Positions 385-9,805 of a stretch of 55,213 nt of DNA are shown piece by piece. Origin of the DNA: Chloroflexota bacterium (lineage in GTDB: Bacteria; Chloroflexota; Dehalococcoidia; Dehalococcoidales; JBDRCY01); assembly GCA_043821265.1 (NCBI GenBank), contig JBDRCY010000025.1:1-55213 (forward strand), in the 5' to 3' direction. The position numbers and the translations under genes are program-made. The first letter of the stretch is position 1. Every line of letters starts with the position of its first letter. The notes under the pieces were generated by a model that saw only the letters and a list, made by a program, of their open reading frames with translations, searched no databases and was not told the DNA's origin.

Positions 385-1296
385 ATGAAGATATACATTT
401 TTATTGCAGTAATACTTGGCCTGATAATAGGCTTTGGGGGTGGCTATGCTACAGGTTATTACACATATGTGCCCCAAATTGAAAGTCATAGAATAGCTGT
501 TAACGAATATGTACAATACAGTTCCAAATTAGAGGAAACCATTTCCAGCCAGGACAAAAAAATATCAGAACTTGAATATGACAAGTCATTATTGCAGGCT
601 GGCCTAGGACAAATGGAGAGTAAGTATGAAGAATTAAATAAAGATATTAGTGATGCAAATGATATGCTACAAGATTTGCAGTCACGAATTAATAAAATAA
701 CTGCTATTACAATACCCCAGAACTACCAATGGGATTATAACTCTACATCTTGGACTTGGGAATTGCCGATACCTCTACTAGCATATGTAGAAAGCTTGGA
801 AAGGCCAAGACCTTCATTCGCCGATTATGTTGATATGGCGAAAGACCCCAATGATGATTCTTACATTGACCAAATGGTGGCTAATATAAACCAAGCAGCG
901 TTAATGAAAGGATATACAGATACAAAGAAGCTCAACTTCTTAGTAGCCTTCGTCCAGAGTTTGCCATATACAGTTGATATAGAGACCAAACCTTACGATG
1001 AATATCCAAGATATCCTATAGAAACACTATTTGATAGGGGAGGGGATTGCGAAGATACTTCCATTCTAGCTGCAGCCCTTCTTGACAGAATGGGTTATGA
1101 TGTTGCTCTTCTCCATTTACAGGCCGCTAACCATATTGCAGTAGGCGTTTCACTAGATTATCCTGCTGGCATGCGTTATGAATACAATGGCAAAGAATAT
1201 TATTTCCTTGAAACAACTGGCGCAGGTTGGGAGATAGGTCAGATTCCACCAGATTTCGGCGATGCTATTGCCTTCGTATATCCATTGAGAAAGTGA
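385..1296 (+). CDS. membrane-anchored coiled-coil protein with C-terminal transglutaminase-like cysteine protease domain
   Basis: N-terminal TM segment, heptad-rich region, YPRYPIETLFDRGGDCED(Cys)...HIAVG(His)...YFLETT motifs. Confidence 0.8.
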   Translation: MKIYIFIAVILGLIIGFGGGYATGYYTYVPQIESHRIAVNEYVQYSSKLEETISSQDKKISELEYDKSLLQAGLGQMESKYEELNKDISDANDMLQDLQSRINKITAITIPQNYQWDYNSTSWTWELPIPLLAYVESLERPRPSFADYVDMAKDPNDDSYIDQMVANINQAALMKGYTDTKKLNFLVAFVQSLPYTVDIETKPYDEYPRYPIETLFDRGGDCEDTSILAAALLDRMGYDVALLHLQAANHIAVGVSLDYPAGMRYEYNGKEYYFLETTGAGWEIGQIPPDFGDAIAFVYPLRK

Positions 1297-2947: not shown

Positions 2948-4123
2948 TCAAAATAGGGAGGGTATACTCTCACCCGAATCGTCTATTTCCCTGAGCTTGC
3001 TGGCCGTATCCGCTCGCTTCACCTTGGAGTCTTTCATAAAGCTAGCTGCCTTGGCATAATATGACCTTACCTTTTCCACATCCTTAAGCTCCGAAAGGAC
3101 CAGGGTGATATCTATGCCACCCCTCCCCCGAGGATAATCGCCATTCCTGATGATAGCCTCCGGAGCCAGGTTCTTCAGGTAGTTCCCCAGCTCCTTAATC
3201 AGGTCCATGTTTATTTCCCTGGGCGGGGCCGATAGCAGATAAACGGCCCTACCCGAATCCGAGGGGTTGCAGGTCAGCGAGAGTTCGCTGATAGCCTCAT
3301 CCATGACCTGGACTCCCTTGTGGATTTCGGTACTCTTCTTCCGGAAGTGCCCCCGGCGTTCGAAGGGAAGCCGGAGCATAGGTAGCGGCGACCTGCCATA
3401 ACCGATTACCGTCCAGCCGGCCAGGCTCTGTATAATATCACCGGCATCGAGCATCTTGGCCCCGATAAATTTTGGCTTCTTCTCCTCGCCGGCACAGAGC
3501 ATATTATAGAATGGCTCGACTATCATATCATTAATCTTGGTCAGGTTAGTTTTCAGTGAGAAGTCCTTCCTGATATACCTCTGGTTATCAACCAGGATCA
3601 TGGCATCGGCAACTGCATTAGTAGACTTTATGCAAGTAGCTGCGTTATAAATAGTCCTTTCCTCGGTCGACTCCTCATGTTCAAAGGGAAGGACAACCAG
3701 GCAGTAGATGGGTTTATCCCCGTATCGCTCTTTTATATGCTTGGTCATTATCGGTAATGTTCCCGAGCCGGTGCCACCAGCCGCACTGGCCACCAATAAG
3801 AAGGCATCAGACTCGAAGAAGCGCTTGGTAGTCCTGATAGCATCGATAACCTTATCGGCATCCTCCCTGGCCACCTCAGCCGCCAGTTCATTTATCTTGC
3901 CCACTCCATGGCCGCCGGTCTTGCGACCACCAATGAGGATTCTATGCTGATAATCGGGCCTTATAGCGGATAGTCCGCTCAAATCCGCAGCATCGGTATT
4001 TACCGCAAAAACACCGGTAAATATCTCTATGCCCCGCTGGGCACGCGCTCTCCTATTTAAACGAGCAAAGCCATCAGCAATACGCCCCCCGCATTGCCCG
4101 AAACCTACAACCACTAATTTCAC
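2948..4123 (-). CDS. cetZ: tubulin/FtsZ superfamily GTPase, CetZ-like
   Basis: MKLVVVGFGQCGGRI, AVNTD, GGHGVG, AGGTGSG, LDAGDII T7 loop, IRNGDYP and C-terminal PSLF match the archaeal CetZ pattern better than bacterial FtsZ. Confidence 0.8.
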   Translation of the reverse strand: MKLVVVGFGQCGGRIADGFARLNRRARAQRGIEIFTGVFAVNTDAADLSGLSAIRPDYQHRILIGGRKTGGHGVGKINELAAEVAREDADKVIDAIRTTKRFFESDAFLLVASAAGGTGSGTLPIMTKHIKERYGDKPIYCLVVLPFEHEESTEERTIYNAATCIKSTNAVADAMILVDNQRYIRKDFSLKTNLTKINDMIVEPFYNMLCAGEEKKPKFIGAKMLDAGDIIQSLAGWTVIGYGRSPLPMLRLPFERRGHFRKKSTEIHKGVQVMDEAISELSLTCNPSDSGRAVYLLSAPPREINMDLIKELGNYLKNLAPEAIIRNGDYPRGRGGIDITLVLSELKDVEKVRSYYAKAASFMKDSKVKRADTASKLREIDDSGESIPSLF

Positions 4124-4163
4124 ATGCCACCTCCAACGTAGAAATAGCCAAACAACCTGCCTT

Positions 4164-4192
4164 CTTTTAGCATACCCACCCTACAATGTCAA
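4164..4192 (-). promoter_or_regulatory. putative promoter of the CetZ-like gene
   Basis: Minus strand TTGACA-17 bp-(TGc)TAAAAG. Confidence 0.45.
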
Positions 4193-4350: not shown

Positions 4351-5271
4351 ATGAGTTGGCGTCGGGTAACTACCTATTTTCTTTGCTTTGTTCTACTCCT
4401 GAGCGTATTTGGTGGGCTGGTCACTAACCAACCGACACATGCTGCCCAAGAGGATAGTATTGGCCCGTGGGTGCTACTACCCAACCAGGAGGACCCTGTC
4501 GAGGATAAAATAGCGCTGGAGTGCCAATTCCCCATCCATCGGGGTGAGCCGGGCGACATCTTCGAATTCGAGGTCTACCTGAAATACCACGGCAGCGCCC
4601 CCAAGCTATTCGACCTGACCTACACCGAACCGCCACCGGGCTGGTCGGTATCGCTCCTGGCCGGTTTCCCGGAGGTGGAGGTGCCGGCCATCCGGCTGGA
4701 GTCGGACAAGGAATATCCCGACCGGCTCAAGGTGAAGTTCTTTTCCGGATACGGGGTGAAGCCGGCGGAGCCGGGCAACTACTCGATTAGCATTACCGCC
4801 TCTTCCGGCAGCCTCAAGGATACCATCGAGCTGACCGCTGAGGTGGTCAATATTCCTCGCTATGAGGTGGTCCTGACTACCGAGACCGAGCGGCTCAGCA
4901 CCGATTTACAGGCCGGTAAGGAAACCCATCTGGGCATCAGAGTGATAAACACCGGCAGCGGCACCCTGGAGAAACTTAGCCTCTCCGCTCTAGAACCGGA
5001 AGGCTGGAGGGTGACCTTCAGTCCGGATAAGGTGGACTCACTGGCACCCACATTCTCCCAGGAAATAGACATGGTTATCGAGCCGCCCAGCAAAACGATA
5101 GCCGGCGATTACGAGATCACCGTTGAGGCCGAGACGGTAAGGGTATATAAGAGAATGAACCTCAGGGTAACGGTGCTCACTTCCACCATCTGGGGATGGG
5201 TGGGTATCGTCATCGTGCTCATAGTCATCGCTGGCCTGGCAGTCATGTTCCGGCGGTTTGGCAGGCGGTAA
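4351..5271 (+). CDS. secreted, C-terminally anchored NEW3 (NPCBM-associated) Ig-like domain protein
   Basis: Signal peptide, two repeats with PxGW motifs, IAGDYEIT, C-terminal TM followed by RRFGRR. Confidence 0.8.
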   Translation: MSWRRVTTYFLCFVLLLSVFGGLVTNQPTHAAQEDSIGPWVLLPNQEDPVEDKIALECQFPIHRGEPGDIFEFEVYLKYHGSAPKLFDLTYTEPPPGWSVSLLAGFPEVEVPAIRLESDKEYPDRLKVKFFSGYGVKPAEPGNYSISITASSGSLKDTIELTAEVVNIPRYEVVLTTETERLSTDLQAGKETHLGIRVINTGSGTLEKLSLSALEPEGWRVTFSPDKVDSLAPTFSQEIDMVIEPPSKTIAGDYEITVEAETVRVYKRMNLRVTVLTSTIWGWVGIVIVLIVIAGLAVMFRRFGRR

Positions 5272-5276
5272 ACAAA

Positions 5277-6215
5277 TTGAGTAAACCATTAGTGGTAGAA
5301 ACCATAGACCTGACCAAGACCTACGACGGTACTACTGCGGTCGACAGGCTGAACCTCAGCATAGAGGAAGGCGAGGTTTTCGGCCTCCTCGGTCCCAACG
5401 GTGCCGGTAAGACCACCACTATACTGATGCTGCTGGGACTTACCGAACCGACCTCAGGAGAGGTGCGGGTATGCGGGTATAATTCCACCCGGGAAGCGCT
5501 CAAGGTAAAGCGCCTCGCCGGGTATGTCCCGGAAAAGGTAGGGTTCTACGATGACCTGACCGCCAGGGATAACATAACCTACACGGCGAGGTTGAACTCC
5601 TTACCCGAAGAACAGATTCCACCAAGGATAAATGAGGCGCTCAAGGTAGTGGGGCTGGCCAAGGACGCGGAACGCACCGTGAACGAATTTTCCAGTGGTA
5701 TGAGGCAGCGACTGGCCATTGCCGACCTGCTGGTCAAGGCCCCCAAGGTGGCCATTTTAGACGAACCCACCCTGGGGATAGACGTCGAGGGGATTGGCCA
5801 GATTCTCGACCTGATAGTGAAGATAGCCCGCGAGCGGCAGATGACCATCATCATGTCGTCACATCAGCTGTCACAGGTCCAGAGAATCTGCAACCGGGTG
5901 GGGATAATGGCCAAGGGCAAGATGGTAGCCGAGGGGTTAATCGATGAGCTGGGCAAGAAGGCCCTGGGCGGCGGGCAGTTTATCATAGAGGTTCAGCTAA
6001 GCGAAATCACCCAGAAGGTTACCGACAGTATCCAGCGCATTAAGGGCGTGGTGAGCGTGGAGAGGTCCGGTGAGCTGCTGCTCATCAGCTGCCAGGATGA
6101 CGTAAGGCCCGAGATAGCCAAAACAATCGTGGACAGTGGCGGCCTGCTGACATATATGAAGATTCAGAGCTATGCTCTGGAGGATATCTATATGAAATAT
6201 TCCAGGGAGGCCTAG
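5277..6215 (+). CDS. ABC transporter ATP-binding protein
   Basis: Walker A GPNGAGKT, signature FSSGMRQR, Walker B ILDEP, H-loop SSH. Start moved to the TTG after the upstream stop. Confidence 0.93.
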   Translation: MSKPLVVETIDLTKTYDGTTAVDRLNLSIEEGEVFGLLGPNGAGKTTTILMLLGLTEPTSGEVRVCGYNSTREALKVKRLAGYVPEKVGFYDDLTARDNITYTARLNSLPEEQIPPRINEALKVVGLAKDAERTVNEFSSGMRQRLAIADLLVKAPKVAILDEPTLGIDVEGIGQILDLIVKIARERQMTIIMSSHQLSQVQRICNRVGIMAKGKMVAEGLIDELGKKALGGGQFIIEVQLSEITQKVTDSIQRIKGVVSVERSGELLLISCQDDVRPEIAKTIVDSGGLLTYMKIQSYALEDIYMKYSREA

Positions 6216-6218
6216 GCT

Positions 6219-7097
6219 ATGTCGGGAATGATAACCGTATTTCGCAAGGAAATGGCCGACCACCTCACCAGCTGGCGTTTCATCATTCTACTGACGATAG
6301 TATTCACCGTCGGCCTGGTGGCCATATACCTCGATGCTCAATTCATAGTTATGGCCATAGCGGACACCCGCTTTGTCTTCCTCAAGCTCTTCACCACATC
6401 GGGACAGTTTCTGCCCTTATTCACCTTTTTTATTACCTTTTTTATGCCCATCGTGGGCATTGTCCTCGGTTTTGACACCATAAACAGCGAGAAGAGCAAC
6501 GGCACCCTGAGCCGGCTCATCTCCCAGCCAATCTACCGGGACGCCGTTATCAACGGCAAGTTCCTGGCCGGTATAACCATCATGACTGTTATGCTGGTAA
6601 GCATGGTACTGCTGGTAGCCGGCGTAGGGCTCCGCATGATCGGCGTTCCGCCATCATCAGAGGAAATTATCCGGATAATATCTTTCCTGGCCGCCAGCAT
6701 CCTCTACGGTGCATTCTGGCTGGGCCTGTCCACACTCTTCTCCATATTATTCCGCCGGGTGACCACCTCCGCACTGGCCTCGATAGCCCTGTGGATGCTG
6801 TGCAGCTTCCTGTTTATCGTCCCCTTTATCGCTTCTTTTGGGCAGGCTGGGATCGTAGTTATGCAGATATCCCCCATAACTATCTTTCAAGAGATCATCA
6901 CCATCCTTCTGGAACCCAGTGCCCGGACACTGGGGCAAATCGTTCAGAGCGGAGGGGTACTACCGACCAGCGCCCTCTCCCTGGACCAGAGCCTGCTAAT
7001 CGTGTGGCCACACCTGGTGAGTCTGGTGGCGCTAACCGCCATATGTTTCGCCGTCTCCTACATCAAATTCATGCGTGAGGAGATACGCTCAACATAA
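6219..7097 (+). CDS. ABC-2 type transporter permease
   Basis: Six TM segments, EKSNGTL...PIYRDAVINGKF motif, directly follows the ATPase. Confidence 0.9.
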   Translation: MSGMITVFRKEMADHLTSWRFIILLTIVFTVGLVAIYLDAQFIVMAIADTRFVFLKLFTTSGQFLPLFTFFITFFMPIVGIVLGFDTINSEKSNGTLSRLISQPIYRDAVINGKFLAGITIMTVMLVSMVLLVAGVGLRMIGVPPSSEEIIRIISFLAASILYGAFWLGLSTLFSILFRRVTTSALASIALWMLCSFLFIVPFIASFGQAGIVVMQISPITIFQEIITILLEPSARTLGQIVQSGGVLPTSALSLDQSLLIVWPHLVSLVALTAICFAVSYIKFMREEIRST

Positions 7098-8799: not shown

Positions 8800-9805
8800 C
8801 TAGCATATCCGGGGCAGCAGCTCGCCGCTGAGCATGTCCACGATGCGTAAGGCCCCCAGCGCGGTCTTTAGGACCACCCGGCCCGGATGTTCGGCGGTAA
8901 CCTCGCCGATGATAGCGCTCTCCGCCCCGTAGCGGTTCCGCTTCATCGCCGCCAGTATCACCTCCGCCGACTCCGGTGAGACTATGGCCACCAGTTTACC
9001 CTCATTGGCCACATACAGCGGGTCGAAACCCAGCAGTTCACAGGCAGCCCGCACCGACTCATGTACCGGTAGTTTAGCCTCCTCTATCCTTATGCCGACA
9101 TTAGACTGCTCAGCCAGCTCGTTCAGGGTCGAGGCCACCCCCCCCCCTGGTGGGGTCACGCAGGCAGTCAACCTGCTTAGAAGCGGCCAGTATATCGGCC
9201 ACCAGCGAGGAAAGCGGTGCACAATCACTCTCCACCGGAATCTCAAAGCTCAGTCCCTCGCGCTTAGACATTATGGCCATACCGTGGTCGCCAAGGCTGC
9301 CGCTGAGAATGATTTTATCGCCGGGCCTGGCATTGGAACCAGAGATAGCCACCCCCGGCGGCACCAGCCCTATACCGGCGGTATTTATAAACAGCCTGTC
9401 GGCATTGCCCCGGTCAACCACCTTGGTGTCGCCGGTAACCACCCTTACGCCGGCTTCCATAGCCACCTCTCTTACGGAATCAATAACCGTCTGAAGCTCC
9501 CTAAAGGTCAGGCCCTCCTCGATGATAAGGGCCAGGCTCAGGTAAAGGGGGGTTGCCCCCGACATGGAGAGGTCATTAATCGTCCCGCATACCGCCAGCT
9601 TGCCGATATCGCCGCCGGGGAAGAATATGGGACTGACGACATAGCTATCGGTGGTGAAGGCCAGGCGGCCATCCACGTCAAAGACAGCGGCATCGTCCAT
9701 CTTATCGATAATGGGGTTAGAGAAGGCGGTAATAAGCCTTGCCTGCACCAGTTCGTGGCTCAGCTTGCCGCCACTGCCATGAGCCAGTAAAATCCTGCTA
9801 TCCAA
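8800..9805 (-). pseudogene. hypE: hydrogenase maturation protein HypE, +1 frameshift in G10 run (9138-9147)
   Basis: ILLAHGSGG, TTDSYVVSPIFFPGGDIG and RDPTRGG in one frame; VASTLNE...LPRIC* (HypE C-terminus) in another. G9 would restore the frame. Confidence 0.92.

Follow-up and report, generated by a model that had tools for sequence, protein, structure and literature searches.

The gene at positions 2948 to 4123 on the minus strand of contig JBDRCY010000025.1 (C25 below; the whole stretch of 55,213 nucleotides is the window) encodes a bacterial member of the CetZ family of tubulin homologues, an identity that we regard as secure. The contig belongs to a 0.93-Mb metagenome-assembled genome (MAG) of 30 contigs, 64% complete, from a Chloroflexota bacterium of the order Dehalococcoidales. 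The protein's family, fold, catalytic and interface motifs and strong purifying conservation, as well as genome content and distribution, were computed and are described below. By analogy with the haloarchaeal CetZ proteins, we think on balance that it would form a GTP-dependent, membrane-associated filament with which a bacterium lacking a peptidoglycan wall shapes or remodels its envelope.

Profile searches match the protein in two parts. Residues 3–183 match Pfam Tubulin (PF00091) with 108.1 bits (cut-off 33), and residues 189–359 match CetZ_C (PF21011) with 48.1 bits (gathering cut-off 21.6) over profile positions 3–178 of 180; the E-values of 8.5e-31 and 1.2e-12, together with thousands of homologues, put the resemblance far beyond chance. 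In a control, the CetZ_C model matched only Haloferax volcanii, one of 14 control genomes. None of the marks of FtsZ was found: the protein scores 57.8 bits against the NCBIfam ftsZ equivalog model TIGR00065, whose cut-off is 295.2, the FtsZ_C domain (PF12327) is absent from its Pfam matches, and it has no linkage to ftsA or dcw genes. Pfam Tubulin_2 gives a weak match of 22.2 bits, under its cut-off of 27. When all PDB sequences were searched with phmmer, the best match was 4b46 with 148.3 bits (residues 2–391 to 2–395), followed by 4b45 (94.7 bits) and 3zid (58 bits), which by their Foldseek titles are Haloferax CetZ1, Haloferax CetZ2 and Methanosaeta CetZ; the best FtsZ reached 40.5 bits, an Asgard tubulin 30.9 and TubZ 24–27.

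The predicted fold points the same way. An AlphaFold2 model from a 96-row alignment has a mean predicted local distance difference test score (pLDDT) of 91.1 and a predicted template modelling score (pTM) of 0.89, and its four best Foldseek matches are, in order, CetZ1, CetZ2 and two Methanosaeta CetZ chains, with target template modelling (TM) scores of 0.93, 0.93 and 0.81–0.83. The root-mean-square deviation is 2.1 Å for both Haloferax chains as against at least 3.1 Å for FtsZ (TM about 0.83 or lower), and TubZ appears at rank 47. Of 72,556 plasmid records searched with tblastn, 35 were matched; all 25 that were listed (E ≤ 1) are CetZ-type genes of haloarchaeal megaplasmids, and no bacterial plasmid is among them. 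The marks of TubZ or PhuZ (a plasmid- or phage-borne gene, a TubR-type partner, a TubZ-like sequence) were likewise not found, the phage collection not having been searched. An earlier reading made from the letters alone (the sequence-only reading) had called the protein a CetZ homologue, and this identity, as against FtsZ or TubZ, is borne out by Pfam, the equivalog model, the PDB search, the fold and the plasmid search.

That reading also quoted the motifs GGHGVG, LDAGDII and IRNGDYP, a hydrophobic and basic loop, and an acidic tail ending in PSLF, all of which are present. The features of the gene are as follows, with residue conservation counted over 121 family sequences.

Positions 2948 to 4123, minus strand: coding sequence of the CetZ-like tubulin-superfamily GTPase, paralogue A (391 amino acids, GTG start, stop codon included).
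Positions 4085 to 4105, minus strand: T1 nucleotide-binding loop G-F-G-Q-C-G-G, residues 7–13 (G7, G9, Q10, C11 and G12 in 121 of 121).
Positions 3899 to 3916, minus strand: T3 loop G-G-H-G-V-G, residues 70–75 (G71, G73, V74 and G75 in 121 of 121, H72 in 120 of 121).
Positions 3761 to 3781, minus strand: T4 tubulin signature A-G-G-T-G-S-G, residues 115–121 (invariant, 121 of 121).
Positions 3431 to 3451, minus strand: T7 loop L-D-A-G-D-I-I, residues 225–231 (D226, A227, G228, D229 and I230 in 121 of 121).
Positions 3335 to 3388, minus strand: M-loop insert P-L-P-M-L-R-L-P-F-E-R-R-G-H-F-R-K-K, residues 246–263, opposite the long loop of CetZ1.
Positions 2951 to 2971, minus strand: C-terminal peptide E-S-I-P-S-L-F, residues 385–391, preceded by an acidic stretch (tail ...REIDDSGESIPSLF).

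Like Haloferax volcanii CetZ1 (4b46), with which it aligns end to end, the protein has a direct MKLxxxGFGQxGG start, GHGVG in T3, an acidic T7 residue, a long M-loop whose tip is hydrophobic, an acidic linker, a terminal ...SLF and the CetZ_C domain, and CetZ1 is its best fold match. It is unlike CetZ1 in that identity is only about 29–31%, its host is bacterial, its isoelectric point (pI) is 9.0 vs 4.6 for a Haloferax CetZ1-like protein, T1 reads GQCGG and not GQAGG, the tail contains a proline (IPSLF vs LESLF), and it branches outside the clade of all named archaeal CetZ. Haloferax CetZ2 (4b45) and the CetZ of Methanosaeta thermophila (3zid) are second and third best by sequence and by fold; the CetZ2 M-loop is short, with a gap opposite residues about 250–262 of the window protein. 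With bacterial FtsZ, represented by that of its own genome, it shares the superfamily fold, the GTPase signature and a similar short C-terminal peptide pattern, but it has no FtsZ_C match and no N-terminal extension, does not lie beside ftsA and is separated by a long tree branch.

The N-terminus, (M/V)KLVVVGFGQCGG, makes up residues 1–13. The T3 loop aligns with the GHGVG of both 4b46 and 4b45, and in the family it reads GGHGVGKIN and is invariant or nearly so; IRNGDYP occupies residues 325–331. D229 of T7 aligns with the glutamate of DSSEII in 4b46, counted there as E218 and presumably the residue that is mutated in GTPase-dead CetZ1. The M-loop insert contains PMLRLPFERRGHF (residues 248–260) and in the alignment faces the stretch where the long CetZ1 loop is unresolved and CetZ2 has a gap. 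Residues 246–264 comprise six hydrophobic residues, six Lys or Arg and one acidic residue; L247 is conserved in 118 of 121 sequences, P253 in 120, and F260, R261 and K263 in all 121, while the confidence of the AlphaFold2 model is low here (10-residue blocks at 54 and 75). At about 18 residues and with a hydrophobic tip, the insert resembles the M-loop of the CetZ1 subfamily, described as 14–26 residues long with a hydrophobic, possibly amphipathic tip (Brown and Duggin 2023, PMC9856176).

The C-terminus aligns end to end with the ...ELESLF of 4b46, and named archaeal CetZ proteins finish in ELESLF, ELDPLF, IEPLF(E), IKPLF or IEPLI. The family consensus is K-D-I-P-S-L-L, with P388 in 121 of 121 sequences and L390 in 120 of 121. 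The sequence-only reading had noted that the FtsZ peptide D-I-P-x-F-L-R is lacking, which is literally true; but S-I-P-S-L-F (family K-D-I-P-S-L-L) closely resembles such a peptide and also the LDMPSFLRR of the genome's own FtsZ (tail ...ELDMPSFLRR). Rod formation in Haloferax is abolished when the LESLF of CetZ1 is replaced by AESGG, and equally when its M-loop tip LLSRL is replaced by SASRA; the M-loop mutant also leaves the cell envelope in vivo yet still binds liposomes in vitro (10.1101/2024.04.08.588506). Thus the M-loop and the tail, which the sequence-only reading had picked out, are exactly the two CetZ1-specific elements known to matter. The window protein is basic (pI 8.99, net charge +7), compared with pI 5.13 for its own FtsZ and 4.5–6.2 for archaeal CetZ, and such a charge would favour direct contact with an anionic membrane. 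A modelled complex of the genome's own FtsA with residues 358–391 scored 0.00; the run had no controls and speaks neither for nor against docking.

Phylogenetic trees were built from named archaeal CetZ loci, all tubulin-family genes of five named archaeal genomes, Dehalococcoidia copies and representatives of 50% clusters. FastTree was run on 144 rows and IQ-TREE (LG+C20+F+G4) on 77 rows, the latter leaving out three long-branch archaeal rows and most unnamed cluster representatives; neither tree has rows for Thermococcales CetZ, tubulin, artubulin or TubZ. The pattern used to search for archaeal loci, [AT][GAS][LF]GGGTGSG, came from a 7-row archaeal alignment and by its design cannot match the Dehalococcoidia signature; its all-archaeal outcome is therefore uninformative about bacteria. 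The two trees agree. All CetZ-like rows are separated from FtsZ (archaeal FtsZ1 and FtsZ2 and that of the genome itself) by a branch of 1.8 changes per site, with a support of 100 in the Shimodaira–Hasegawa-like approximate likelihood ratio test (SH-aLRT), and the window protein lies on the CetZ side. The maximum-likelihood phylogeny that the sequence-only reading had proposed thus does not place it within FtsZ, in trees that hold no TubZ rows.

Within the CetZ side, the window protein belongs to a clade (SH-aLRT 82) of Dehalococcoidia genome copies and metagenome representatives, whose named members are labelled Chloroflexota, Dehalococcoidia or SAR202. Its sister is a clade (SH-aLRT 83) with every named archaeal CetZ, comprising Haloferax CetZ1-like and CetZ2-like proteins and those of Archaeoglobus, Methanomicrobiales, ANME-1/Syntrophoarchaeum and Hydrothermarchaeota; the corresponding values in a 43-row tree are 70 and 93. 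This sister placement has moderate support, and the root lies on the long FtsZ branch. The protein is not in the haloarchaeal CetZ1 clade and so is not a CetZ1 orthologue. The label "archaeal-type" that it had been given needs qualifying, since it suggests nesting among archaeal CetZ: these trees place the protein, with moderate support, in an old sister clade that is purely bacterial so far as its members are named. Brown and Duggin (2023) draw the boundary of the CetZ family at Thermococcales CetZ, and they also describe CetZ-specific residues near the GTP pocket that set it apart from FtsZ, naming a few positions of the Pyrococcus protein.

The duplication that gave paralogues A and B falls inside the bacterial clade. 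Two smaller CetZ-like groups of about 356–373 amino acids, from other genomes of the class, nest instead inside the archaeal clade; these (loci L138–L145 and L147) are without the DIPSLL tail and come from other Dehalococcoidia families, and one genome (G009) has a clade-A copy as well as two smaller-group copies in tandem on one contig. Their nesting points to several separate inter-domain transfers. The approximately unbiased (AU) test on 43 rows (LG+G4) rejects a single clade for all bacterial copies (difference in log-likelihood 259.9, p about 1e-110); the groups tested were named after viewing the first tree, and cluster representatives P0157, P0159, P0162, P0164, P0179, P0217 and P0233 adjoin tree groups B and C. 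This rejection matches the "sparse paraphyletic groups" that Santana-Molina et al. (2023, PMC9871819) describe for "CetZ-like" proteins of Chloroflexota-Dehalococcoidia, where, as here, there are several separate Dehalococcoidia groups. Their proteins are almost certainly the same set as the family described here; the one or two sentences given to them there deal with neither anatomy, distribution, a link to wall loss nor function. The fact at the level of sequence is therefore already in print; in the published text available the family is unstudied.

The source genome is bacterial, with three matches to sigma-70 region 2 and none to TATA-binding protein (TBP), and its closest homologues carry the source names Chloroflexota, Dehalococcoidales or Dehalogenimonas, in accord with the bacterial, Dehalococcoidia-like host that had been supposed. 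An archaeal host, which reviews ascribe to the CetZ family, is thus not what was found, this being a matter of distribution and not of structure. Small-subunit (SSU) rRNA searches found no rRNA genes in the MAG. It has three tubulin-superfamily genes: ftsZ, the window gene and a second CetZ-like gene (paralogue B), and CetZ_C is matched by both CetZ-like genes. Paralogue B, on contig C26, has 393 amino acids, is 61% identical to the window protein and ends in KDIPSLLG. The separate canonical ftsZ that the sequence-only reading had proposed to look for exists, as an ftsA-ftsZ pair on contig C22 whose FtsZ has 376 amino acids and the motif NLDFADV, so the window gene is not the sole FtsZ-family gene.

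The absence of peptidoglycan, which had been thought probable, is likewise in keeping with the gene content. In the source genome and four near-complete relatives, no MurD was found, nor any match to Transpeptidase (0/5), MurG above the cut-off (0/5) or SepF (0/5). The MreB model gave weak cross-matches only (at most 58 bits) in the same five genomes and no MreB was found; the cross-matches are to frames of 635–649 amino acids, which we take, unchecked, to be Hsp70/DnaK, and to FtsA-sized frames of about 400–420 amino acids, one of them the ftsA of C22. The missing wall genes agree with published accounts, in which Dehalococcoides, and Dehalococcoidales generally, are without the dcw cluster and keep mraZ-mraW-ftsA-ftsZ (PMC10608941), and Dehalogenimonas is without genes for peptidoglycan synthesis (PMC13390414). 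FtsZ itself is retained: of 41 genomes of the order, 37 match FtsZ_C, as do all 19 of high quality.

The family is widespread and tightly conserved. In a search of 5.8 billion proteins, 8000 candidates were scored and 5979 had E ≤ 1e-3; the best 120 homologues are 71–97% identical, and 116 of them have exactly 391 amino acids. In one Chloroflexota class the family shows about 72–75% identity and a fixed length, and orthologues at 62–70% identity are present in complete single-contig genomes of the same order. As had been suspected, relatives stand in the databases under FtsZ labels, deposited as "cell division GTPase FtsZ" or "tubulin/FtsZ family protein". Among 301 sampled genomes of the window's class, 61 match at E ≤ 1e-10 and 60 match CetZ_C; in the window's order 15 of 17 genomes have a CetZ-like gene, and 12 of those 15 have at least two copies. 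A 401-genome sample of the phylum holds 28 CetZ_C-positive genomes, every one of them from the window's class. Strong matches to MurD (TIGR01087) occur in none of the 61 CetZ-like-positive class genomes, 12 of which have weak matches only (E ≥ 6.8e-7), and in 126 of the other 240, one of which (G244) is flagged unpublished. The family is thus confined to the wall-less part of the class and is not universal there.

A subgroup of clade A with 418–424 amino acids (P0149, P0391–P0509) is very abundant in marine and other metagenomes, where it is labelled SAR202, Chloroflexi or Dehalococcoidia, and it is also found on megabase-sized contigs; no close orthologue of it was found in the 301 class genomes (scanned with P0149) or in the 401 phylum genomes (scanned with PF21011).

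Paralogues A and B differ in their surroundings, which were compared by clustering the open reading frames (ORFs) at the window locus together with the ORFs of nine further loci. In relatives, copy A is surrounded by housekeeping genes, those for GAPDH, enolase, dnaX-ybaB-recR and ligA (recognised from sequence, with no family search), which indicates core-genome synteny and not an operon. Copy B always adjoins genes for two low-complexity coiled-coil proteins of 163–188 and 441–607 amino acids that belong to no Pfam family, and in three genomes (G198, G227, G254) copies A and B bracket both coiled-coil genes in a four-gene block. This block is split in the source genome, with copy B and both coiled-coil genes on C26 (61305–64934) and copy A alone on C25. 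On C26 (loci L002, L163) copy B lies tail-to-tail with the coiled-coil proteins, which here have 163 and 607 amino acids (62537–63028 and 63111–64934) and are rich in Ala, Glu and Lys; in G055 the pairing is partial.

By analogy with CetZ1, we propose that the window protein binds GTP through its T1–T6 loops and polymerises head to tail, D229 in T7 of one subunit completing the GTPase site of its neighbour. The resulting filaments would run beneath the cytoplasmic membrane, where the M-loop with its basic and hydrophobic residues, docking of the D/S-I-P-S-L-L/F tail on a partner, or both would keep them in place. There they may give shape to the envelope, or remodel it, in a bacterium devoid of a peptidoglycan wall, MreB and SepF, acting beside the canonical FtsA-FtsZ division pair and not in its place, and probably together with paralogue B and its two coiled-coil neighbours. 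Polymerisation, membrane association and a role in shape or the envelope are all things that we infer from such comparison. Proteomic work on Dehalococcoides mccartyi BTF08 bears on this: a second "FtsZ/Tubulin GTPase", btf_0551, distinct from the FtsZ btf_0595, was detected there and was more abundant, or quantified only, in disc-shaped cells of pure culture as compared with barrel-shaped cells of co-culture (Kruse et al. 2021, PMC8163811). In a complete 1.5-Mb genome of the same order (G055), copy A and one of the ftsA-ftsZ pairs are about 49 kb apart, a spacing that would fit the 44 locus tags between btf_0551 and btf_0595, the membership of btf_0551 in the family being unconfirmed.

Several points weigh against a shape-determining filament. 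Its function is extrapolated from Haloferax CetZ1 at only about 30% identity, and, given that the CetZ1 M-loop mutant still binds liposomes, the M-loop may serve contacts between subunits and not with the membrane. With a genome 64% complete, "not found" is weak evidence where the source genome itself is concerned. Among the 301 class genomes, 114 have neither MurD nor a CetZ-like gene, so a CetZ-like protein is not required for wall-less life, and the association with peptidoglycan loss may represent, phylogenetically, a single event or a few, since related genomes are not independent. No conserved functional neighbours of copy A were found in the loci of nine relatives. Lastly, FtsZ and the tubulin-like protein fall together in BTF08, which fits a division role equally well (PMC8163811).

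Such a role is the main rival: the protein could be an accessory division protein that co-assembles or cooperates with FtsZ at the septum and offsets the missing septal synthesis of peptidoglycan, comparable to the two FtsZ paralogues of wall-less archaea. We consider this a serious possibility, though one we would not expect to prevail. The likeness of the S-I-P-S-L-F tail (consensus D-I-P-S-L-L) to the LDMPSFL of the genome's own FtsZ suggests that the two might share FtsA as an anchor, and FtsA is the only known anchor found, SepF having been sought in five genomes and found in none. The joint drop of FtsZ and the tubulin-like protein in BTF08 was seen in cells with an arrested ring-shaped septum (PMC8163811; family membership unconfirmed), and the possession of two FtsZ paralogues seems to matter in archaea that have no pseudomurein wall (Brown and Duggin, PMC9856176). 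Against this, the sequence, the C-terminal domain and the fold are those of CetZ and not of FtsZ, and the window gene does not lie beside ftsA or ftsZ; to our knowledge, Haloferax CetZ1 and CetZ2 are not needed for division. In favour of the rival again, some relatives multiply FtsZ itself: G055 has two FtsA-like/FtsZ pairs (C1:362351–363965 and 624746–626415), and G267, one of the two order genomes without a CetZ-like gene, has four FtsZ_C matches in four places. This multiplication may be an alternative way to expand the tubulin repertoire.

The protein could instead be a scaffold that positions envelope machinery such as pili, secretion systems or respiratory complexes and does not determine shape, which seems to us improbable. 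CetZ1 is reported to affect the placement of the archaeal motility machinery (PMC13644373; bioRxiv 10.1101/2024.05.02.592137), and a pilus system is mentioned for D. mccartyi (PMC8163811), but in the nine relatives' loci no genes for pili, secretion or respiration are seen to be linked with it in a conserved way, and the window neighbours (Usp, a NEW3-domain protein and an ABC-2 transporter) are not conserved beside the gene elsewhere. No extra tubulin homologue of bacteria is better known than TubZ, and with the sub-cut-off Tubulin_2 match this might suggest a TubZ-like motor that segregates the DNA of a plasmid, prophage or integrated element; we reject this as very improbable on the plasmid search, the sequence, the fold and the neighbourhood, since there is no bacterial plasmid among the listed tblastn matches, TubZ scores 24–27 bits and ranks 47th by fold, the gene is chromosomal and, in relatives, is conserved among housekeeping genes in a syntenic order, and the Pfam scan of the window shows no TubR-like or mobile-element genes adjacent to it. 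Mis-binning of an archaeal contig into a MAG that is 64% complete, in 30 contigs and without rRNA, or decay of a functionless transferred gene, is for practical purposes refuted by the orthologues in complete single-contig genomes of the order, the contig G+C of 0.566 that matches the rest of the MAG, the fixed length (116 of the best 120 matches) with invariant motifs, and an intact frame with a Shine-Dalgarno sequence.

Returning to the filament that we favour, a bolder form of it can be imagined, which we hold to be unlikely, though less so than the positioning scaffold. Clade A would not be a recent archaeal import but an ancient line of bacterial proteins on the CetZ/tubulin branch, and it would have taken over morphogenesis once peptidoglycan and MreB had gone from the ancestor of these Dehalococcoidia. 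The near-universal paralogues A and B would co-polymerise in the manner of alpha/beta-tubulin or BtubA/B, together with the coiled-coil proteins of B, with the basic M-loop and a tail that converged on the FtsZ/FtsA docking motif as tethers.

The reading frame itself is straightforward. Only one ORF is present at 2948–4123, and the direct start without an N-terminal extension that had been noted for it holds, since the GTG is the earliest possible start codon in a stop-to-stop frame of 410 codons, which makes an FtsZ-like extension impossible. Two signals precede it.

Positions 4130 to 4134, minus strand: Shine-Dalgarno sequence GGAGG, 6 nt upstream of the GTG (read directly from the sequence).
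Positions 4164 to 4192, minus strand: putative promoter, TTGACA (4192–4187), a 17-nt spacer ending in TGc, and TAAAAG (4169–4164) (read by eye).

The promoter-like element was not listed by a promoter consensus scan because the last base of its -10 hexamer is G; an element of the TTGACA...TAAAAT type also stands upstream of the CetZ-like genes of relatives G198 (both copies) and G055.

The 41 window ORFs include, by Pfam, genes for hydrogenase maturation, heterodisulfide-reductase-like proteins, aldehyde:ferredoxin oxidoreductases, molybdopterin enzymes and transporters; no division, dcw, mur or wall gene was found among them, as the sequence-only reading had said of dcw genes. Divergent from the CetZ-like gene, positions 4351–7097 (plus strand) encode a NEW3-domain protein that is secreted or lies in the membrane, and then an ABC ATPase and an ABC-2 permease, a trio that was not found beside the CetZ-like genes of nine other loci compared. 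At 385–1296 (plus strand), 1.6 kb from the CetZ-like gene, is a gene for a protein of 303 amino acids with an N-terminal membrane helix, a coiled coil and a weak transglutaminase-like match (DUF553, E 0.0024), which is not conserved beside the CetZ-like gene in relatives. The window neighbours were considered as functional partners and rejected, none being conserved beside the gene in the nine relatives' loci. Further along, at 8800–9805 (minus strand), hypE (AIR-synthase-like, hydrogenase maturation) is present as two overlapping ORFs in different frames (9110–9805 and 8800–9246), each matching part of AIRS/AIRS_C, which indicates either a frameshift or an error of assembly within the hypFDE cluster.

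Brown and Duggin (2023, PMC9856176) and later abstracts call CetZ archaea-specific, and set against this view of the reviews is a conserved, multi-copy bacterial CetZ branch in Dehalococcoidales, an order that, judging by the source names of the homologues, includes cultivated genera such as Dehalogenimonas. The value of the window copy is confirmatory. The order has an S-layer-like envelope with no peptidoglycan and no MreB, and the CetZ-like family is the obvious candidate for keeping or changing its disc shape. If the idea of an ancient lineage forming a heteropolymer were true, these bacteria would have a tubulin-based, wall-independent shape system. The family offers a direct handle on wall-independent bacterial morphogenesis and on the spread of CetZ and tubulin between the domains.

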